From the NCBI GenBank assembly GCA_944327845.1, contig CALVHN010000001.1, forward strand, positions 9,149-73,148: DNA of 64,000 bases, read 5' to 3'. The DNA comes from an uncultured Bacilli bacterium. GTDB taxonomy: Bacteria; Bacillota_I; Bacilli_A; RFN20; CAG-826. This document shows positions 35,737-59,602 of the stretch, piece by piece. Under the pieces are notes generated by a model. It was not told where the DNA came from. It ran no database searches and was given only the letters and a program-made list of their open reading frames with translations. Both the position numbers and the translations under genes were made by a program. The first letter of the stretch is position 1, and the number at the start of each line of letters is the position of its first letter.

Positions 35737-36459
35737 ATGAGAAAATTTTTAAAATTAGGAATTTGTTTAGTCGTTGGTGCAAGTTTTTTATTAACTAGTT
35801 GTGGAGAAACTGCTATTACCCAAGCAGAAGCTACTACTAAATTTAAAGCAATGGATGCTAAAAAGGCATTTGATGAATTAAATGGTTTAGAAGTCACTGC
35901 AACTATTGAAGCTAAGGGTGAAACTGTTGAGGAAACAGGCAAAGCTGAAGTTAAGTTCCAAGTTGATTTTACAGAAACTAGCGTTTATTTATATATGGAA
36001 GTATCAATGACACAAGGTGATAAAACCGAAGAAATGAAAGGTTTAATGTATATTGATGGGACAACTGCTTATAGTGGCGAATCTGTTAATGGTGAGGTAA
36101 ATGAAGCTACTATTACTGTAGAACAAGTTAAAACTCAATTTACGGAAGCTAAGGATTCAACTATTTATCCCATGGCTAATAATGAAGAACTTAGTGCAAT
36201 GGTATTTGGTGCAGCTGAAACAACATTTGACTATTTTGAATTAAGTGATGGTGGATTAAAAGTAAGTGGAGAAAGTTCAGCTACTGTTGGTGGTGATGGT
36301 GTTGTCCAAAAAATAAACATTGAATATACTAGTGCTGGATTATTAAGATTAGTTGATGCTGAAATTAATACAACTGTTAATGGTGTTACAACAGGAATGA
36401 TCATCAATTATGAGATTGATTACAACGCTAACTTTACTAAATTAACTTCTTTAAAATAA
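35737..36459 (+). CDS. lipoprotein (240 aa)
   Basis: Signal peptide with lipobox 'LLTSC' ('MRKFLKLGICLVVGASFLLTSCGE'). A GGAGG ribosome-binding site lies upstream. Confidence 0.6.
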   Translation: MRKFLKLGICLVVGASFLLTSCGETAITQAEATTKFKAMDAKKAFDELNGLEVTATIEAKGETVEETGKAEVKFQVDFTETSVYLYMEVSMTQGDKTEEMKGLMYIDGTTAYSGESVNGEVNEATITVEQVKTQFTEAKDSTIYPMANNEELSAMVFGAAETTFDYFELSDGGLKVSGESSATVGGDGVVQKINIEYTSAGLLRLVDAEINTTVNGVTTGMIINYEIDYNANFTKLTSLK

Positions 36460-36515
36460 TAAAAATTTTTATCAATTACACTTAGTAAGATTTTTAAAAT
36501 TAAAGCAAAAAACAA

Positions 36516-36551
36516 AATCTGTGAGGGTAAGCTCGCAGATTTTTCTTTTTA
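36516..36551 (+). terminator. rho-independent terminator after the lipoprotein gene
   Basis: 10-bp stem AATCTGTGAG / CTCGCAGATT with one G-U pair, loop GGTAAG, then TTTTTCTTTTT. Confidence 0.55.
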
Positions 36552-36953
36552 AACTAATCATTTTTTAATTAAAAAATAGATGATGTTTTAACTTCTGTAA
36601 CTATGAAATATGATATTGATTATAATGTTTCTTTTTTTGATAAACATCGTTAGAGAAATCGATCAATAATTAAAAAACCTATGTATTTATTAACCTTTTT
36701 GACCATATTTCTTAAAAAAATTGTTTTTTCTAGACTATTTTTTATTTTAAATATGAAAAAAATAGATAAAAAATTTGCAATTTTTTTTGACAATGTCAAA
36801 TTTATTAATTTATTGAAATTATTCAAGAAATAAATTTTGAACAAAAATATATTATTTCCCACATAATTTTAAAAAATACATAGGTTTTAAATGTTTTATA
36901 GTATTTATTTTATAAAAATAATTATCAACACTTTTAAGCTAAAACCCAAAAAT

Positions 36954-37098
36954 AAAAAAAAAAAAAAATTTATTAAAATTAAATAAAAAAAAAAAAAAAA
37001 AAAGTAAAAAAAAAAAAAAAAAAATTAATAGAACAAATATAATAAAAAAAAATAACAAAATAAATGACCTAAAATAAAAAAAAAAAAAAAAAAAAAAA
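36954..37098. repeat. cluster of five homopolymeric poly(A) tracts (15, 19, 19, 9 and 23 nt) upstream of the surface-protein operon
   Basis: Direct reading: A15 at 36954-36968, A19 at 36985-37003, A19 at 37006-37024, A9 at 37044-37052, A23 at 37076-37098. A TTGACA -35-like hexamer follows at 37164. Confidence 0.9.
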
Positions 37099-37241
37099 CG
37101 ACCATTAAAATTAAATAGAAATAATGGATACAAAAGTAAGAAAAAAATAAAAAAAATTAAGGTTTGACACTATAAACCTTGACTATTTATCATTTGGCAC
37201 CATGCATAAATGGAAATAGATTTTTAAAAGGGGGATATATT

Positions 37242-37874
37242 ATGCATAAGAAATTTTTTACATTTGCTGTCCCATTATTAGGAGCAGCTGTATTAGTTGG
37301 TGCTGGTTTTTCTGCTTGGGTTTTCCAAGGTGAAGGATCTGCAAAAATTACTGGAACTATTAGTGTTACACCAGCTATTGATACCTTAAATGTTCAACTT
37401 TATAAAGATGCTAGCACTAAAGCAGATGAAGTTAGTGCTGTAACACTTACCTTAGATCAAGGTGGTGTAATGAATAATGATGTAACTAAAGGTGCAACCA
37501 CTGATGTTTCTTCGTATGATATTCTTGTTACTTTTACTGAAACAGATGGTGCTTTAGCTGCTTTATTTGATGATTTTCAGTTAACTTTAGATGCAGAAAT
37601 TAGTGTTACTGCTGCAACAAAAGGTGATGCATCTAGCGATATTTTAACAACTTTTATAAATTATGTTGATTTAACTGATGATTCTAAAACAGCAACTGGT
37701 AATTTTACCGTTTATGATGAAAATAGTTTTGTTATCGAAGACGTAGATTTATTATGGACTTATGCTCAAAAACCTACAAGTTATGGTGAATATAATGCAA
37801 TGAATACAGCATTAAGTGGTGCTAATTTTACCATTACTGTAAGAGTTACTGCAGATTGGACTCCTAGAATTTAA
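37242..37874 (+). CDS. secreted protein with a 'GAGFSAWVF' signal-peptide motif
   Basis: The ATG at 37242 is preceded by a GGGGGA ribosome-binding site. N-terminus 'MHKKFFTFAVPLLGAAVLVGAGFSAWVFQGEG'. The ORF track starts earlier, at 37179. Confidence 0.6.
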   Translation: MHKKFFTFAVPLLGAAVLVGAGFSAWVFQGEGSAKITGTISVTPAIDTLNVQLYKDASTKADEVSAVTLTLDQGGVMNNDVTKGATTDVSSYDILVTFTETDGALAALFDDFQLTLDAEISVTAATKGDASSDILTTFINYVDLTDDSKTATGNFTVYDENSFVIEDVDLLWTYAQKPTSYGEYNAMNTALSGANFTITVRVTADWTPRI

Positions 37875-37914: not shown

Positions 37915-38595
37915 ATGTACTTACTTAATAAGATAAAAAATATTGCTATTCCACTTTTAGGATTTACTACATTAGTTTCAACAGGGTTTGGAGCATGGGT
38001 CTTTCTTGGATCCATGTCCAGCTCTTATGAAATTAGATCAACTCAAGTAAATGTTACAAGAGTTAATGATTCTATAGGTAAGCTTGAAATCAATGATAGA
38101 ATCCATCTTTATGAAACTCCATATATTTTAACTTTTGAAGTTGGAAGTGGAGAGGATTTTACAAGTAGTGAAGTTGGTGTTGAGCTTTCAAATAATATTG
38201 AATATAAATTCTATGAGTTTTATCAACCAGAAGAGAATTATGGATATTATTTAAGCTATAGAGTTATTTATAGTGCAAATAGTATTTATGATCAATATGT
38301 TGTAATAAAGGATTTAGCAAATTCTGGAACTAATGAAGCAGATGGAAGATTATATCAAGAATCTCATCAAATTTTATTAGATTCAAGGTTATTTAATGAA
38401 TCATCTACTTTAGATAAAGCAAATAATCCTTATTATGAACTTAATGATGATTTATACATTGACTTTAATTGGAAAGAACATACAAAACCAATTACCGCAA
38501 GTGCATATAATGCATTTTTATCTTCAGTACATGATTCAAGTATCAATTTACCAATCGAAATTGAATTAAAAATTACGTATCAACGAATAAATTAA
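37915..38595 (+). CDS. secreted protein with a 'TGFGAWVF' signal-peptide motif
   Basis: N-terminus 'MYLLNKIKNIAIPLLGFTTLVSTGFGAWVFLGS'. Second of three same-strand genes sharing the motif. Confidence 0.6.
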   Translation: MYLLNKIKNIAIPLLGFTTLVSTGFGAWVFLGSMSSSYEIRSTQVNVTRVNDSIGKLEINDRIHLYETPYILTFEVGSGEDFTSSEVGVELSNNIEYKFYEFYQPEENYGYYLSYRVIYSANSIYDQYVVIKDLANSGTNEADGRLYQESHQILLDSRLFNESSTLDKANNPYYELNDDLYIDFNWKEHTKPITASAYNAFLSSVHDSSINLPIEIELKITYQRIN

Positions 38596-38643: not shown

Positions 38644-41022
38644 ATGAATAAAGTACTTTTGTTTTTTAAATCAAAACCGCTTGCTATTTTATTAATAGTA
38701 TTCTTTATTGTTTTTGGAAGCTTTGCTTCGATTGGTTTTTCTAATTGGATCTTTGAAAGTGAAACAACAGATACAAAAGACAATATTGGATTAGATTCAG
38801 ATCCAATTAGAGAAAATGCAACATTTAATGATGGCTTCGATGTTGTTGATCGAGGCATTCAAACATATGATGTTTATTTTATGGCTCAATCTGTGCCTTA
38901 TACTACTTTATTTGGTAATGATGGATTTAATCAAAATGAAAATAATCAAATTGTTCAACCTTACTATACCTGTATGAATTATGGATCAGCATATGGTTAC
39001 AATGTAAATTATGGTCATTTTGATCAATACGATAATGTTACTGATTGGGAATCAAATAACTTCAACAAATATTTTCTTAAATTCGAAAATAGAGCTGAAA
39101 TATCTATGAGTGATTTGGGTAATATTCCTAACCCAAAAAATAAATTAGTTGATGGAAATAATTGGCCAAAAGATGGCTCTGGTTTAAGATTTGCTGGATG
39201 GATGATTTATCCTTATGATATTTATTTTAAAGAAAGTGGTTCTCATTCTTTAAACCAAGTTTATGGTTGGTATCCTTCGGATATTCTTTCTTCGGACTCG
39301 TCAATTCCTGCTTTTGAATTATTTAATAGTAACGCTTTATTATCTACTTACGATAATATAGCAATTAATGTTAATGGAAAAAAATCATTATTTTTATTTC
39401 CTCTATTTACTACTAATAAAAATTATTACGAACAAAGAAATCAACGTCCACAAAATGTAAGAGATTCTATCTCTATACAGAAAAAAGAATCGAATGGTAA
39501 AAATTTAGGTGAAAACTATTTTATTTATAGTTCTAATTTATCTCAAGGTTTAAGAACTGAATTAGGTTTAAAGACTTCTGATACAAGCGTTAATGTTTTT
39601 CAAATTAATAATTATACGATTGATTCAAAAGATTATAACGATGCAAATATAAGAATAGATATCATAAATGATATGGATAGAAACGATGGATCGTGGGAAG
39701 GAAATCAAAATTTTTATCAGTATGGCGGTAAACATTATGTTCAAAACAGTGATACTTTTAGTGATACTTTTGAAGATAATTTTGATTTAAAAAAGAGCAG
39801 TGGAAGATTTAATATTTATCTAATTGTTAAAGAGGCTTATGATTCAAACAGTGGTGGTTTTAGTAGTCATGATTATAATTTTAATTTTGGAAATAACACT
39901 TTCTTAAAGACTGATATTCAGACTATAGATAGTTTTTTCTCTAATAATAATATTGGTAAATATATTTCATTTAATCTAGGTACTTATGTATCACGACATG
40001 AGAGTGGCGGTTGGCTTAGTTGGCATACATATGGTGATACAAGAGATTATTACATTTACTATGAAAGACTATATGAACCTCGTTTAATTGGTGGAGAAAC
40101 AAATGAATTAAATTATGATTCTGAACGTTCAATTTCCGATCACTTCGTCCGCCAAGGAACCAAAGAATATTTAAAAGATAGATATGAACTTGCTGGTGTT
40201 AATCTTGATGGTAGTCAAACTATTGAATTACCAATTTCTAATGGAAGAAGAACTATGCTAATTCCTAATTATTATTTTGGTATTCAATTAACTCCAGAAA
40301 ATTTCTTTACAACTTATACCTTTGCTTTTAAAGATGAGAGTCAAAACCAAACACCTGAATGGCCTAAATTAAAATTAGAAAATGATGATGAAGTTATTGA
40401 GCAACCATTTTCATCTTCATCAATGTTTAGAATTTATGATCCTGATAGAGACCATGATATCTATATTCGCGAAAGTAATGGTGAAGTGAAAACTCTTCAA
40501 GAAGCAAATTATGATTTTGATGCAAACCCTATAGAATTAATTAAACCTATTAATAAAGGAAACGATGCAATTGGTATTTATACAATCACAGTAGATGTTG
40601 AATATGGCGAAGATGGTTCAGGAAGAACTGTCCCAAAAACAATTTATATTTATGGATATCGACTTTTAAATATTTTTGTTAACATCTGCGATGATAAAAC
40701 ATTTAAAACTGGTTTAAGTCTTGGTGGAGATAGAAATAATAATTTTGTTGATACGAGCAGTTATTCTTATCGAAAAGATAATTATTACCAACTTCAAACT
40801 CTTACTTTAGAAGATAGATTTACAGATACAAATGATTCAAATGAAATAACTTTAGGAGAAATTTTAACTAATTTAAGTTCTCAAAATAAGTGTTTACAAG
40901 AATTAGTTACTCATAGATATATAACTTATGAATCATTAGATCCTAATAATAGTGAATATGTTCCTTTTGTTATACGTAAAAATTATGTATTTATGATTGT
41001 TGATAAACCAACAGCAAATTAA
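38644..41022 (+). CDS. large secreted protein (792 aa) with an 'IGFSNWIF' signal-peptide motif
   Basis: N-terminus 'MNKVLLFFKSKPLAILLIVFFIVFGSFASIGFSNWIFESE'. N/D/Y/G-rich extracellular composition. Confidence 0.6.
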   Translation: MNKVLLFFKSKPLAILLIVFFIVFGSFASIGFSNWIFESETTDTKDNIGLDSDPIRENATFNDGFDVVDRGIQTYDVYFMAQSVPYTTLFGNDGFNQNENNQIVQPYYTCMNYGSAYGYNVNYGHFDQYDNVTDWESNNFNKYFLKFENRAEISMSDLGNIPNPKNKLVDGNNWPKDGSGLRFAGWMIYPYDIYFKESGSHSLNQVYGWYPSDILSSDSSIPAFELFNSNALLSTYDNIAINVNGKKSLFLFPLFTTNKNYYEQRNQRPQNVRDSISIQKKESNGKNLGENYFIYSSNLSQGLRTELGLKTSDTSVNVFQINNYTIDSKDYNDANIRIDIINDMDRNDGSWEGNQNFYQYGGKHYVQNSDTFSDTFEDNFDLKKSSGRFNIYLIVKEAYDSNSGGFSSHDYNFNFGNNTFLKTDIQTIDSFFSNNNIGKYISFNLGTYVSRHESGGWLSWHTYGDTRDYYIYYERLYEPRLIGGETNELNYDSERSISDHFVRQGTKEYLKDRYELAGVNLDGSQTIELPISNGRRTMLIPNYYFGIQLTPENFFTTYTFAFKDESQNQTPEWPKLKLENDDEVIEQPFSSSSMFRIYDPDRDHDIYIRESNGEVKTLQEANYDFDANPIELIKPINKGNDAIGIYTITVDVEYGEDGSGRTVPKTIYIYGYRLLNIFVNICDDKTFKTGLSLGGDRNNNFVDTSSYSYRKDNYYQLQTLTLEDRFTDTNDSNEITLGEILTNLSSQNKCLQELVTHRYITYESLDPNNSEYVPFVIRKNYVFMIVDKPTAN

Positions 41023-41037: not shown

Positions 41038-43392
41038 ATGGGACATTTAATTACTTTAGTAAATGCATCAAAGATTGAAGCAATCTCACTTGCAATATCA
41101 ATCACAGTCATCGTTCTTTTATTTATTACACTTGCAGTATCTTTATATTTATATTATCGATACTATAAAAAATGTATCGATAATAAGATTGAAGATTCAT
41201 ACATTAAAAATGAAATAAAAGGTGAAAATAAAAAGTTTTTTAAACGTTTTGAAAGCTTAAAAAATAATCAAGAATTAACTAAAGATCAAAAGATTGATAA
41301 ATATAATGAAGAATTATTAGTTGAATATGTTGATAATAAAATTGGTAATAATAATTTTATTAAAGTAATTGCTAATTTATTCTTAATTATTTTCTATGTT
41401 TGCTTAATTGCTATTATGGGTTTTGCTATTTATACTCGAAGCCAAGGAGATACTATTCCTCTTGGAAATAGCTATTATGTTGTTATCCAAACTGGATCAA
41501 TGGAAGAAAAAAATAGTGCAAATACTTACTTAGAAGAAAATAATTTAAATGATCAAATCGAGACATTTTCTTTAATTGGATTAGATTATGTTGATAGTCC
41601 AGATGAATTAGAACAATATGATATTGTTGCTTATTATGATGATGATAACAATTTAATTGTTCATAGAATTATTAATATTACTTATGATGAAAATAATAAT
41701 CCTATCTATACTTTAAGAGGTGATAGCAATACTTTCTCAAATAGTGATGAAAGAAGTTTAACTTTTGATGATATCGAAGGAAAATATAATGGATTTCAAA
41801 ATTTTGGCTTAGGTTTAACTATCAATTATATGAAATCTAATATTGGCATAATTGCTATATCTTTAGGCTTAATTTTAATTATGATCTATGACTACTTTGA
41901 TATCTTACTAGGTAAAAGAATTAAATTAAGAAAAGAAGAAATTTATCCTTTAATTGATGAAGAAAATATTAATACTTTAAAAGGTTTGACTTATGTTCCT
42001 GTTATTGAAGAAGAAGTTAAAGAAGAAACGATAGAAGAAATAAATGAAACACCTTTAGAAGAAGTTATTGAAAATAAAGAGGAAGTTTTAACTACAAATA
42101 GCGAAGAAAATAAAGATGAAATCTTAGTTAATCAAGAAATAAATAATGAAAATAATCTTCAAGATATAAATATTGAAACACAAGAAGAAAATAAACCTGA
42201 TATAGATGTAGTTGTTGTTCCTATTGTTCAAAAAACTAAAAAAGCTCGTAAAAAGATGATTCCATTTAACGATAAACTTTTAAGAGCAAGTGATGACTTA
42301 AAATTAAAATATGAATACTTAAGAGATTATATTTTAAGCTTTGGATTAAAACATCGTATTTCAAGACAATTTGATAATTATTCATTACATAGAGTGAGAT
42401 ATTTCTGTTTTGTTTTAAGAGGAAAAGCTTTATTTATTCACTTTAAACTTGATATTAATGATTATGCAGATTCAACAATTCCAGTTAAATTAGATGATAA
42501 AGTTAAATATCAGGATGTTCCAGTAATCTTTAAAGTTAAATCTAATCTTTCATTAAAACGTGCTAAATCTTTAATTGATGATGTTATGAGCAATGAAGGA
42601 TTTGAACAAAAATATGAATTTATCTCTCATTTTAATTTAAATGATATCGATGAAACTGAAGAAATTGAAGATGATTTTGAAGATGAATTTGATGATAATG
42701 ATTACGAAATTGAAGAAGTAGAAACTACTAATGAAAATAATGAAGAAGAAAAAGTAGTTGAAACTGATAATTTAAATGATAATGAAGCTTCTAATGAATC
42801 TATTGAAGATGATAATTCTAATGTCGAAATTAATAAAGAAGAATCTGATGAAGAAGAATTAAAAGACAATAATGAAGACACTGAAGATGAAAAAGATGTT
42901 GAAGTAGAAGAAGACTCTAACGACATCGAAGAAGAACAAAATATTTCTTTTGATTCACAAAATGAAGAAAATAATGATCAAGTTATTAAGGTTAAAAGAA
43001 AGAGAAATCCTGTTGTTAAACTTTCAACTAAACTTAATTTAATTCCTCAAGATTTAAAAGAAAAATATGATGAAATTATAAAATATGCTTCTAATTATGG
43101 ATTAAAAGGTAGAATTTCTAATACTCAATATACTTTTAGACTTCATAGAGTTACATATATTGTTGTTCAAATTAGAAATAATGCTTTAAGATTACATTTT
43201 AAACTTGAAGAATCTGATTTTGATGAAAATAATAAGATTCCATTTAAAAATGATTCAAAGAAAGCCAAGTTTATTGATACTCCAATCTTCTTTAAAGTTA
43301 AATCTAAATTATCTTTAAAAAGATGTAAAATGATGATTGATGTTTTAGCTAAAAAGTATAATTTTGAAAAGAAAGATGAATCTATAAATTAG
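41038..43392 (+). CDS. membrane protein carrying a SipW-type (S26B) signal-peptidase domain, an acidic linker and two tandem ~125-aa C-terminal domains
   Basis: Peptidase boxes 'VVIQTGSMEE' (Ser box), 'YDIVAYY...LIVHRII' (His box) and 'YTLRGDSN' (compare SipW 'SGSMEP', 'THRV', 'KGDNN'), flanked by transmembrane segments. Residues ~403-525 and ~645-775 are clearly paralogous ('...LHRVRYFCFVLRGKALFIHFKLD...FKVKSNLSLKRAKSL' against '...LHRVTYIVVQIRNNALRLHFKLE...FKVKSKLSLKRCKMM'). Confidence 0.5.
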   Translation: MGHLITLVNASKIEAISLAISITVIVLLFITLAVSLYLYYRYYKKCIDNKIEDSYIKNEIKGENKKFFKRFESLKNNQELTKDQKIDKYNEELLVEYVDNKIGNNNFIKVIANLFLIIFYVCLIAIMGFAIYTRSQGDTIPLGNSYYVVIQTGSMEEKNSANTYLEENNLNDQIETFSLIGLDYVDSPDELEQYDIVAYYDDDNNLIVHRIINITYDENNNPIYTLRGDSNTFSNSDERSLTFDDIEGKYNGFQNFGLGLTINYMKSNIGIIAISLGLILIMIYDYFDILLGKRIKLRKEEIYPLIDEENINTLKGLTYVPVIEEEVKEETIEEINETPLEEVIENKEEVLTTNSEENKDEILVNQEINNENNLQDINIETQEENKPDIDVVVVPIVQKTKKARKKMIPFNDKLLRASDDLKLKYEYLRDYILSFGLKHRISRQFDNYSLHRVRYFCFVLRGKALFIHFKLDINDYADSTIPVKLDDKVKYQDVPVIFKVKSNLSLKRAKSLIDDVMSNEGFEQKYEFISHFNLNDIDETEEIEDDFEDEFDDNDYEIEEVETTNENNEEEKVVETDNLNDNEASNESIEDDNSNVEINKEESDEEELKDNNEDTEDEKDVEVEEDSNDIEEEQNISFDSQNEENNDQVIKVKRKRNPVVKLSTKLNLIPQDLKEKYDEIIKYASNYGLKGRISNTQYTFRLHRVTYIVVQIRNNALRLHFKLEESDFDENNKIPFKNDSKKAKFIDTPIFFKVKSKLSLKRCKMMIDVLAKKYNFEKKDESIN

Positions 43393-45166: not shown

Positions 45167-45859
45167 TTATTTGCTATTTTCATCCTTTGAAATAAGTTCT
45201 TCTAAAAGAAGACCAACATTAGAACCAAGGTTATTTTTTAACATTTTTAAATCTTCACAGAAAAATTTCTCGTTTTTTATTGCTGTCTGGATTTTGTCTT
45301 TAAACTTTTCAAAATTTAAATTTGATTTTGTACAATTAAAAAAATCAGATAATTTAATTTCTAAAAATCTTTTTCCTCCTTTTCTAGTTTTTCGATTCTC
45401 TAACATCGCTTTAGGATCTAATGTAAAAATCTTATCATCATGCATTAATAAAAATAGTTCAAATGTTGGGTTAGAAAGACAAATATTATAGTTCTCATTT
45501 TCACATTTATTAAAGAATTCATCTAATTGTTCTTCTTTAAAGTTTTGTGGATCTCTATCTATTATAAAGAAAACTTTATCAATCTTTGGATCATAAGTAA
45601 TTTTATTGTCCTTAATTGATTTTTTAAAATTTTTAAGTTTAAGTAATGGATGGCTTTGTCCATTTTCATCAATCTCATTTTTTATTAACCTTATATCAAT
45701 TAAATAATTTATGTTTAAATAATCAGTATTTGCTTTTATACCTTGAAAATATTTAATTTCAGTAACATCTCCTTCAGTAACAATGAAGTATTTAGACTTT
45801 GGTTCGATATTACCTCTTTTTCTTGTTAAATTAAGATTATTTTCATTTAATTCTCTCAT
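45167..45859 (-). CDS. RloB-like protein (AbiLii-like partner of the AAA ATPase)
   Basis: N-terminal 'KYFIVTEGDVTEIKYF' and C-terminal 'FFIIDRDPQ...CLSNPTFELFLLMH' match the RloB-family pattern (IVCEGEKTE...SNPcFElWlLLH). Translationally coupled to the upstream ATPase. Confidence 0.6.
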   Translation of the reverse strand: MRELNENNLNLTRKRGNIEPKSKYFIVTEGDVTEIKYFQGIKANTDYLNINYLIDIRLIKNEIDENGQSHPLLKLKNFKKSIKDNKITYDPKIDKVFFIIDRDPQNFKEEQLDEFFNKCENENYNICLSNPTFELFLLMHDDKIFTLDPKAMLENRKTRKGGKRFLEIKLSDFFNCTKSNLNFEKFKDKIQTAIKNEKFFCEDLKMLKNNLGSNVGLLLEELISKDENSK

Positions 45860-47277
45860 TAATAATTATCTCCAATTGAAGACGTGACTTCAAAAGTTGG
45901 TATGCCTCCATATCGACCTTCTAAATACGCTTTATCAATTTTTTTATCAAATCTTTCGTTATATTTTTCTAATGAATAAAGGGTAGTTGGACCATTTTTG
46001 TCTCTATCTGTAAACCATATTTCATCTCTTCTTAATAAATTGAAATCTAACAATCTCGATTCATGAGTAGTAACGACTAATTGGCTATTTTCTGTTGCTT
46101 CAAGAAAATATTTAACAAATTCATAAGTTAATTCTGGATGAAAACATCTATCTAATTCATCGATAAAGTATACTTTTTCTCCTTTTGTATTTAAAAGTAC
46201 ACCAATTAAATCAAATAATCTTTGTGTTCCATCTGATTCTTCGATAAATAAATAATCACCATCATTGTTTTTATGGTTTAAAACTACTTTCTTAACATTA
46301 TATTGATTATTGTCTCGATTAATAAAAAACATTTCTCGGTTGATGCGTAAAGAAACTAATGGTTTTTCAGTAATGTTATTTTTAACTCGGTTAATATAAG
46401 CGGTATCTAAATTATTTAACATATTTTTTAAAAATTCTGGTGGAAGATTTAAACTTAATAATTCATCTAAAGAACTATCAACTAAATTACATTGACTTAT
46501 ACCTGTTCCAAATTTTGAAATTAATTCATTAATTTTATTAAGACTTTCTTCAGATAAAAATAGTGGAGAAGAGTCTAAACTTAATTGTGGGAATATTATA
46601 ACTAATGAGTTTAAAAACCAATTATAAATATCTTTAAAAATAGTTACATTGTTGTCGTTATATTCTCGATATAAGGTATCTTTATTTTTATTCATAATTG
46701 TTAAAAACAAAATAGTATCTTGATCTTTCATATCTGAATAATAAACATCTAACCTTTTTAAGATTTCTTTGTTGTTATTGAAATAATTGTTATCTAGATT
46801 AATGTTTTCGTGTAATTTACGATTAAAAATTAATTCTTCTTTATTTGATTTTTTATTAAGTTTATATAGCCATTCAGCTTTAATGCTATTTTTGGATAAC
46901 AAAATGTCAAAGCCGTAGGCATATAAATTATTATTAATTTCAATTTCAAAATCAAAAGAGCTCATTTTATCTTTATTTTCGGTATTTATTCGACAATATA
47001 AATTAGAACAATTTCCTCTAATACCACTTAATATTATATTTTTAGCAAAGGAAACGGCTTTTATTAAATTTGATTTTCCTGAAGAATTAGCTCCATAAAT
47101 TGCAGAAAATTTTAATAGTTTTAAATCATTATTTTTTTTAATGATGTGATTCTCTTTTTTTTTTGTACTTCCTGCAATCATCGAAAGTTCTTGTTCTTCT
47201 TGAAAAGATAAATAGTTTGATACTTTGAAATTGATTAACATTTTTTCTCCTTTAAAATGTGAAATTTTCACATTCAT
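45859..47277 (-). CDS. AAA-family (ABC-like/RloA-AbiLi-like) ATPase
   Basis: Walker A 'SAIYGANSSGKSNLIKA', a Q-loop region, Walker B 'VYFIDELDRCFHPE', and a D-loop/H-motif 'VVTTHESRLLD'. Its stop overlaps the start of the RloB-like gene. Confidence 0.7.
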   Translation of the reverse strand: MNVKISHFKGEKMLINFKVSNYLSFQEEQELSMIAGSTKKKENHIIKKNNDLKLLKFSAIYGANSSGKSNLIKAVSFAKNIILSGIRGNCSNLYCRINTENKDKMSSFDFEIEINNNLYAYGFDILLSKNSIKAEWLYKLNKKSNKEELIFNRKLHENINLDNNYFNNNKEILKRLDVYYSDMKDQDTILFLTIMNKNKDTLYREYNDNNVTIFKDIYNWFLNSLVIIFPQLSLDSSPLFLSEESLNKINELISKFGTGISQCNLVDSSLDELLSLNLPPEFLKNMLNNLDTAYINRVKNNITEKPLVSLRINREMFFINRDNNQYNVKKVVLNHKNNDGDYLFIEESDGTQRLFDLIGVLLNTKGEKVYFIDELDRCFHPELTYEFVKYFLEATENSQLVVTTHESRLLDFNLLRRDEIWFTDRDKNGPTTLYSLEKYNERFDKKIDKAYLEGRYGGIPTFEVTSSIGDNY

Positions 47278-58225: not shown

Positions 58226-59571
58226 GTTTGAGAGTTATGTTATCTACGGTCGGTCTTGAACAACTAGAAGAAGATGTTTTAATGACTTATAGTTTGAGAG
58301 TTATGTTATCTACGGTCGGTCTTGAACTCAAGTTACGGATACACCGTTCCTTCAGTGTTTGAGAGTTATGTTATCTACGGTCGGTCTTGAACTTGAGATT
58401 GAGGTGCTTTTGCAAAATGATTGTTTGAGAGTTATGTTATCTACGGTCGGTCTTGAACATTTATTCTTTTCCGTTCTAGTAATTTTTTGTTTGAGAGTTA
58501 TGTTATCTACGGTCGGTCTTGAACATTATTTGGAAGTTCTGTTGCATCAATATAGTTTGAGAGTTATGTTATCTACGGTCGGTCTTGAACTACTTTAATA
58601 TGTAAAATGTTGTTCATCCGTTTGAGAGTTATGTTATCTACGGTCGGTCTTGAACATAACATCTTTACAAGGATCTTGCACACAGTTTGAGAGTTATGTT
58701 ATCTACGGTCGGTCTTGAACATATCTTGTTCATAGACTTGTCCATCTTCAGTTTGAGAGTTATGTTATCTACGGTCGGTCTTGAACTGTCTTTGATTTTT
58801 AAATCTGTCATAATTGTTTGAGAGTTATGTTATCTACGGTCGGTCTTGAACTAAAACTGGCATCATTTCCTTGATTATATTGTTTGAGAGTTATGTTATC
58901 TACGGTCGGTCTTGAACACTAATTCCTTTGCATTTGGTCCTATTGTGTTTGAGAGTTATGTTATCTACGGTCGGTCTTGAACCCTAGAAAGTATAATAAT
59001 TTTATGGATTAGTTTGAGAGTTATGTTATCTACGGTCGGTCTTGAACTTTTGTTCATTCTTTAGTCCTCCTATTGATGTTTGAGAGTTATGTTATCTACG
59101 GTCGGTCTTGAACTTAAACTGGCGTTTTACCTTGATTATATAGTTTGAGAGTTATGTTATCTACGGTCGGTCTTGAACAGTCTGTTCTTCTAAAATACTT
59201 GCCTGTGTGTTTGAGAGTTATGTTATCTACGGTCGGTCTTGAACAAGAACGATTTGAGGTGCTCACGGTATCTGTTTGAGAGTTATGTTATCTACGGTCG
59301 GTCTTGAACGCATCGTTTGTATCTTGGCTTGTGCTTTTGTTTGAGAGTTATGTTATCTACGGTCGGTCTTGAACATATTTCTACAAGCACATTTACTACA
59401 ATTGGTTTGAGAGTTATGTTATCTACGGTCGGTCTTGAACTTACTTTCTTTGATATAATAATTCTAGGCCGTTTGAGAGTTATGTTATCTACGGTCGGTC
59501 TTGAACCATTATCTAGATTAATCCATTCGCTACCGGTTTGAGAGTTATGTTATCTACGGTCGGTCTTGAAC
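58226..59571 (+). CRISPR. CRISPR array of 21 x 36-bp repeats (GTTTGAGAGTTATGTTATCTACGGTCGGTCTTGAAC) with 20 spacers of 29-30 bp
   Basis: Repeats counted directly at 58226, 58292, 58357, 58423, 58489, 58555, 58620, 58685, 58751, 58816, 58882, 58947, 59012, 59078, 59143, 59209, 59274, 59339, 59405, 59471, and 59536. All repeats are identical, including the last. Confidence 0.97.
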
Positions 59572-59602
59572 TCTTATATATTGTTAATCACGGATATAAA
59601 AT

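Follow-up and report, generated by a model that had tools for sequence, protein, structure and literature searches.

Why should a series of long poly(A) tracts stand directly upstream of an operon for secreted proteins, and could the tracts influence its expression? The window (the whole stretch of DNA analysed, 64 kb in length) holds five such tracts on the + strand, all within 145 bp (36954-37098). Tract 1 is an A15 (36954-36968; 36948-36968 with the preceding A5-T), tracts 2 and 3 are both A19 (36985-37003 and 37006-37024), tract 4 is an A9 inside AT-rich filler (37044-37052) and tract 5 is an A23 (37076-37098), with a conserved CGACC immediately 3' of it. The A content across 36948-37098 (151 bp) is 81%, and the start-to-start distances of the tracts are irregular (31, 21, 38 and 32 nt). 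Tract 5 ends 65 bp before a TTGACA hexamer and 143 bp before the ATG at 37242; across the array, the gaps between tract and -35 range from 65 to 195 bp.

Outside the array, no A/T run in the 64 kb exceeds 10 nt. The numbers expected in 64 kb by chance are 0.025-0.13 for A15 or more, 6e-4 to 5e-3 for A19 or more and 1e-5 to 2e-4 for A23 or more, and given the local A content of the 782-bp spacer the chance expectation for such long A runs is at most 1e-3. The rest of the window contains no A run of at least 9 nt (and one T10), versus 7.5-19 such A runs expected. Thus, long homopolymers are avoided outside the array. An independent Logan k=31 contig (ERR14964788; L004/L058) has all five tracts at equal lengths. 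We conclude that this is a strongly non-random, strain-variable homopolymer array adjoining the promoter of a surface/secreted-protein operon.

The array lies inside a non-coding spacer of 700 bp that begins at the intrinsic terminator of the upstream lipoprotein gene (36514-36543, + strand; a 12-bp stem, then a T run). The only Rfam matches in the window at gathering thresholds are three tRNAs; the spacer has neither a riboswitch nor an sRNA match. The best sigma-70-type promoter (37164-37193, + strand) consists of TTGACA (37164-37169), 18 nt and TATCAT (37188-37193), matching 11 of the 12 consensus positions, and the spacer between its hexamers (37170-37187, ctataaaccttgactatt) is free of repeats. 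A GGGGGA ribosome-binding site and then the ATG at 37242 follow 3' of this promoter, with a promoter-to-ATG geometry that equals that of the sister-species promoter TTGACA-G(n)-TAGAAT (see below). Adjoining the -35 is an A7-T-A8 stretch (37141-37156) that is UP-like by sequence only. From 5' to 3', the order is a conserved upstream block, the tract(s), a conserved 65-bp segment with A7-T-A8, and the -35. The upstream block (36660-36900) is 94% identical between lineages and holds the palindrome TTGACAATGTCAA (36789-36801); no regulator site was identified upstream.

Several other roles for the region were considered and rejected. The tracts are not terminators (the sole terminator-like site is that at 36514-36543, and there are no GC-rich hairpins before the tracts), and the array is not coding, as the open reading frames over it are artefacts of poly-Phe and poly-Lys (e.g., minus strand, 36939-37133). 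A replication origin or DNA-unwinding element is not supported, given that cumulative GC skew climbs monotonically across the region. The spacer also contains a 20-nt inverted repeat with 95% complementarity (36674-36693 / 36869-36888) around a block of 175 bp. Between lineages this block is 94% conserved, and as RNA it has a fold z of -4.6. An invertible promoter was rejected, since every covering contig has the one orientation and the changes in the arms between lineages are not compensatory.

Downstream of the promoter, four genes are encoded on the + strand. Genes 1 (37242-37874, 210 aa), 2 (37915-38595, 226 aa) and 3 (38644-41022, 792 aa) are predicted to encode secreted beta-sandwich proteins with a common N-terminal hydrophobic segment ending G-F-S/G-A/N-W-V/I-F. 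The N-terminus of gene 1 reads MHKKF..LVGAGFSAWVF; gene 2 has the motif GFGAWVF, as in gene 1, and gene 3 has the related GFSNWIF. We take this motif to resemble the SipW-cognate signal peptide (TIGR04088); the TIGR04088 HMM gave no match to the operon proteins, even at E up to 10. The product of gene 4 (41038-43392, 784 aa) resembles SipW/archaeal-type signal peptidase I over residues 109-290 and continues in a long C-terminal extension. It matches NF046067 (E 4.9e-15; 55.6 bits, below the curated cut-off of 190) and TIGR02228 (E 1.3e-7; 31.6 bits, below the curated cut-off of 51.85).

The tapA-sipW-tasA operon of B. subtilis encodes SipW-dependent secreted fibre proteins. The operon in the window resembles it in that a putative SipW/archaeal-type signal peptidase is encoded together with several predicted secreted proteins, which have a common N-terminal signal motif and a predicted beta-sandwich fold. 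A "SipW/TasA-like secretion operon" is to be read as a functional analogy, not as demonstrated membership. Pfam and NCBIfam contain no family for genes 1-3, for the upstream lipoprotein or for the C-terminal region of gene 4. The latter (~490 aa) contains two similar domains of ~100 aa (…YILSFGLKHRISRQ… / …YASNYGLKGRISNT…), with long acidic low-complexity linkers between them. The upstream neighbours of the operon are an acyl-CoA ligase-like gene and the gene for the 240-aa lipoprotein (35737-36459). Between strains, gene 1 has diverged more than any other gene of the locus: its nucleotide identity is 90-93%, versus 96-99% for the lipoprotein, gene 2 and ligase genes. The pattern suggests that the first secreted protein is under diversifying selection, as would suit an exposed product. 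The preliminary description had reported A15, A19, A19, A9 and A23 tracts within 145 bp, ahead of an operon for secreted proteins and a putative peptidase. Its coordinates and distances are correct, and the strong promoter-like site, the three secreted proteins and the SipW-like peptidase bear out the rest of that claim.

The window has a GC content of ~25%, and we infer the standard code because long open reading frames are read with table 11. Its host is an uncultured gut Bacilli MAG lineage and not a classical Mollicute, one of the groups on which the preliminary description had drawn for comparison. The gene-1 family is small (36 clusters). All its carriers are MAGs of gut-type metagenomes that are labelled uncultured Bacilli, Firmicutes or Mollicutes; Candidatus Caccosoma faecigallinarum is among them. 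The window's species is absent from the GTDB representatives, where the best match has 44% identity. A scan of JGI metagenomes for the conserved flank gave no match, and a protein-based scan added eight distant loci, all of which lack repeats. Searches of the literature and by accession found no paper on these MAGs or samples.

Contigs for comparison were collected by exact-protein look-ups. They include six sister lineages in which gene 1 has 80-85% amino-acid identity. The flanks of P0008 and P0003 (two lineages compared) have 92-99% nucleotide identity, except for a 143-bp promoter-proximal piece (88% in L017). All six sister lineages have one tract, in the same place and of the form aaaaccc-A5-T-A(n)-cgacc, where n in the clean contigs is 12, 12, 13, 14, 14, 14, 15, 15, 15 and 15; length variation in these close lineages with A12-15 is modest. 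The tract is kept at the same position in seven lineages, and the ancestral state is a single A5-T-A12..15 tract.

In the lineage to which the window belongs, 6.6 kb of flanking sequence contains 0-1 SNP, yet the array takes several forms. These are A5-T-A18 (L085), A22 (L001, L002), A17 + 16 nt + A26 (L003) and the five-tract form, which is limited to the window and the Logan contig of ERR14964788. Elsewhere, the tract that corresponds to tract 5 has 22, 23 or 26 nt, or the contig breaks there. In L001, L002, L013, L016 and L072 the total length is unchanged and C-to-A or T-to-A changes are present at the 5' edge of the tract. Because assemblies identical over 6.6 kb differ only at the array, we conclude that the region is hypermutable. 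This polymorphism was established between assemblies, and differences at long homopolymers between low-coverage short-read metagenome assemblies may be partly technical. In ERR14964788 the assembly runs through the whole array, so that strong heterogeneity within that sample is less likely.

Short-read contigs of several samples stop exactly at the tract, on either side (L005-L009, L014, L016, L057). Those that end within the tract do so with A22-A33. The locus systematically fragments assemblies of the species. For run ERR4096493, both the left-hand and the right-hand contig terminate at the array.

The five-tract form can be parsed into segments, all on the + strand. The first, A5-T-A15 (36948-36968), matches the A5-T-A12..15 tract of all close lineages. 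It is followed by R' (36969-37030), composed of ATTAAAATTAAAT, A19, GT, A19 and TTAA, then by the AT-rich filler with tract 4 (37031-37075), tract 5 and the conserved promoter-proximal segment R (37099-37163), in which ATTAAAATTAAAT recurs at 37104-37116, ahead of the A7-T-A8. Segment R is 88-100% identical across lineages. An ungapped alignment of 36972-37030 with 37104-37162 gives 48 identities in 59 positions, such that ATTAAAATTAAAT-A19-GT-A19-TTAA in R' matches ATTAAAATTAAAT-agaaataatggatacaaaa-GT-aagaaaaaaataaaaaaaa-TTAA in R. Ten of the 11 mismatches are a non-A in the downstream copy that is A in R' (five G, four T and one C); the eleventh is G to T, at the extreme end of the alignment. 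As the two segments align without gaps and nearly all mismatches are to A, tracts 2 and 3 are a degenerate, A-converted copy of the UP-like segment that is conserved next to the promoter. For the filler (37025-37075), an origin from 36895-36947 was rejected, as the ~70% similarity is the same in direct and inverted orientation and is indistinguishable from low-complexity chance.

A length-preserving conversion to A was seen a second time, independently, in a sister lineage. L017 and L018 have an identical gene-1 protein, and their gap-free alignment of 115 nt shows 13 differences, of which 12 are to A. The result in L017 is A21 ... A11-T-A19, in which the A7-T-A8 has been expanded or converted and the A19 abuts the -35 (6 bp away). 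This A-conversion could be either a real misalignment-driven spread (by dislocation or template switching) or read degradation toward A that was fixed by assemblers. If real, it is a local mutational process that deserves description; if not, it is a systematic artefact by which assemblers create false tandem structures. Either would be useful to recognise. The idea that the tracts are variable holds, in that their number and length differ between assemblies that are otherwise identical. The further idea of five separate tracts giving combinatorial states is not supported: close lineages have one tract, the five belong to this genome, and tracts 2 and 3 are a degenerate copy. In this lineage alone, one ancestral tract has been elaborated into the five, over a region that has grown to 151 bp.

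In other species, the repeats at homologous operons are of a different kind. The sister species, whose gene 1 has 44% identity, carries the operon promoter TTGACA-agagact-G(n)-TAGAAT; different assemblies have n = 7, 8, 9, 10, 10 and at least 10, and one variant is TTGACA-cgtgac-G10-a-TAGAAT. The -35/-10 spacers are therefore 14-17 nt, and the poly(G) (L019-L023, L078, L079) is ~55 bp upstream of the gene-1 homologue. By its arrangement, this poly(G) is a textbook spacer-length switch. For G/C runs of at least 7 nt, we surveyed the representative loci of 32 species (247 kb, GC 24-61%). Fourteen of the 15 runs are within 350 bp upstream of the gene-1 homologue (binomial p = 2e-18), and such runs closely precede the homologous operon in 14 of the 32 species. 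In L032, L038, L040 and L054 the runs are between -35-like and -10-like hexamers; some lineages (e.g., Caccosoma-like) have no repeat. Given the runs in 14 of 32 species and the G7-G10 polymorphism in the sister species, the operon family is repeatedly coupled to hypermutable promoter repeats and to repeat-based switching. The poly(G) result is independent of the poly(A) question and makes a directly testable prediction for metagenomic reads.

We propose, with a probability of roughly 0.5, that the hypermutable poly(A) region 65-195 bp upstream of the -35 is a contingency locus that grades the output of the operon. The tracts would change via slipped-strand mispairing, together with substitutions that arise from misalignment (dislocation or template switching). 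Such changes could alter the distance, helical phase and DNA stiffness between upstream sequences and the UP-like element plus core promoter, and the promoter would then behave as a rheostat instead of switching fully ON or OFF. The outcome would be diversified expression of an exposed, fast-evolving surface structure in the gut population. Graded tuning is more plausible than ON/OFF control in the window because the tracts are outside the core promoter. The poly(A) ON/OFF switching of Mollicute promoters, invoked in the preliminary description, does not apply to a promoter whose -35/-10 spacer has no repeat and whose nearest long tract is 65 bp from the -35.

Among known systems, sabA and nadA provide the closest mechanisms because their repeats, upstream of the -35, shift UP-like elements or operators relative to the core promoter; the window likewise has a hypermutable repeat upstream of the -35. 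In H. pylori sabA, a promoter T-tract adjacent to the -35 acts as a rheostat that tunes the promoter, and A/T tracts of a similar kind adjoin other -35 elements (PMC4081817). The likeness comprises an A/T homopolymer upstream of the -35 of a surface-protein gene, A-rich UP-like boxes nearby, length variation by slippage and graded output (both proposed for the window) and an organism with few regulators (assumed for the window's host). The sabA tract abuts the -35, whereas that in the window is 65 bp away, although the A19 of L017 does abut it. The window also differs in having up to five tracts with A runs of up to 23, in a Gram-positive-type gut Bacilli host.

In N. meningitidis nadA, a distal TAAA repeat alters the spacing of distal promoter elements or operators, resulting in graded expression (PMC2791445). 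There too the repeat is upstream of the core promoter, but it is a tetranucleotide repeat that depends on NadR and IHF sites on either side of it, and no such sites were identified in the window. In M. hyorhinis vlp, poly(A) in the promoter itself brings about ON/OFF switching (summarised in PMC10502178). Promoter-associated poly(A), variable surface proteins and a low-GC, small-genome Firmicute relative are points of likeness. The vlp, porA and hif type of switch involves a repeat in the -35/-10 spacer, which the window lacks; the spacer-type switch is found instead in the sister species, with poly(G) (TTGACA-7nt-G(7-10)-TAGAAT). The length polymorphism typical of these systems is present between assemblies.

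If the tracts do tune transcription, this would be the first repeat-based contingency control in uncultured, genome-reduced gut Bacilli (RF39/RFN20-like MAG lineages), and the SipW-dependent secreted proteins would be a variable surface structure, probably exposed to host or phage. To our knowledge, no genetics exist for these uncultured gut Bacilli (RF39/RFN20-like).

As the main alternative, the array might be a neutral mutational by-product that has no effect on the operon, formed by runaway slippage and A-biased misalignment in a weakly constrained spacer of a 25% GC genome. The position of the tracts outside both the core promoter and the UP-like element is what this would predict, as are the confinement of the five-tract form to one genome and the filler, which has no recognisable function; the A-conversion, moreover, resembles a mutational process and not a designed element. 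We nevertheless consider neutrality somewhat unlikely. The site is unique in a 64-kb window that, one T10 apart, has no other A/T homopolymer of at least 9 nt despite many AT-rich spacers, the tract is kept in the same place in all seven close lineages, and the same operon has promoter repeats in 14 of 32 other species.

A broader version of the contingency proposal extends it to the clade. Here, uncultured gut Bacilli would place a SipW-dependent surface structure under stochastic control by repeats, with the type of repeat turning over (poly(G) inside the spacer in many species, a distal poly(A) array in the window). The array itself would grow by an undescribed "poly(A) spreading", in which promoter-upstream DNA is duplicated and every non-A then becomes A at constant length, with the new tracts retuning the promoter. 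We put this forward tentatively and consider it unlikely.

The five-tract structure could also be partly an artefact. The real locus would then be one poly(A) of ~20-30 nt or more, the differences between assemblies would be technical, and the extra tracts would have been assembled from reads that degrade toward A past the homopolymer. Both conversions (R' versus R, and L017 versus L018) are length-preserving and A-biased, as a mixed-phase signal past a homopolymer could yield. Several low-coverage contigs (L001, L002, L005, L013, L016, L072) have C-to-A and T-to-A changes where the tract begins or ends, and contigs break at the tract. We favour a real structure because the 151 bp are identical in the products of two pipelines (the window and the Logan k=31 contig), and because a k=31 de Bruijn path needs true 31-mers over all junctions, including that from R' to the filler. 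In addition, a blurred signal would have lost the exact register in which GT, TTAA and the 13-mer ATTAAAATTAAAT are kept, and the tracts of 12-15 nt vary between clean contigs too. An artefact is thus improbable.

A static structural role, in which the array would be bent or rigid A-tract DNA serving as a fixed activator, distal UP element or insulator with incidental length variation, is very improbable. An A-rich UP-like stretch does adjoin the -35, and A-tract DNA is favoured by nucleoid proteins and by the alpha-CTD of RNA polymerase (compare PMC4081817). However, a single tract suffices in most strains, and tracts of 9-23 nt, spaced irregularly at 31, 21, 38 and 32 nt and at least 65 bp from the -35, are not the A4-6 tracts phased at 10-11 bp next to the -35 of a bent-DNA activator, which was rejected on these grounds.

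Elsewhere in the window, we identified a CRISPR-like array (58226-59572) with ~20 copies of the 36-nt repeat GTTTGAGAGTTATGTTATCTACGGTCGGTCTTGAAC and spacers of ~30 nt (TRF periods 131, 262 and 327). A defence-type pair of genes, for an AAA_21 ATPase and an RloB-like protein, is encoded on the - strand (45167-47277), beside tRNA-Val and tRNA-Gly. The first ~40 codons of the AAA_21 ATPase gene contain, on the coding strand, an A10 and an A8 (T10 at 47155-47164 and T8 at 47132-47139). This A10 is the only homopolymer of at least 10 nt in the window other than those of the array, and it could act as a frameshift switch.
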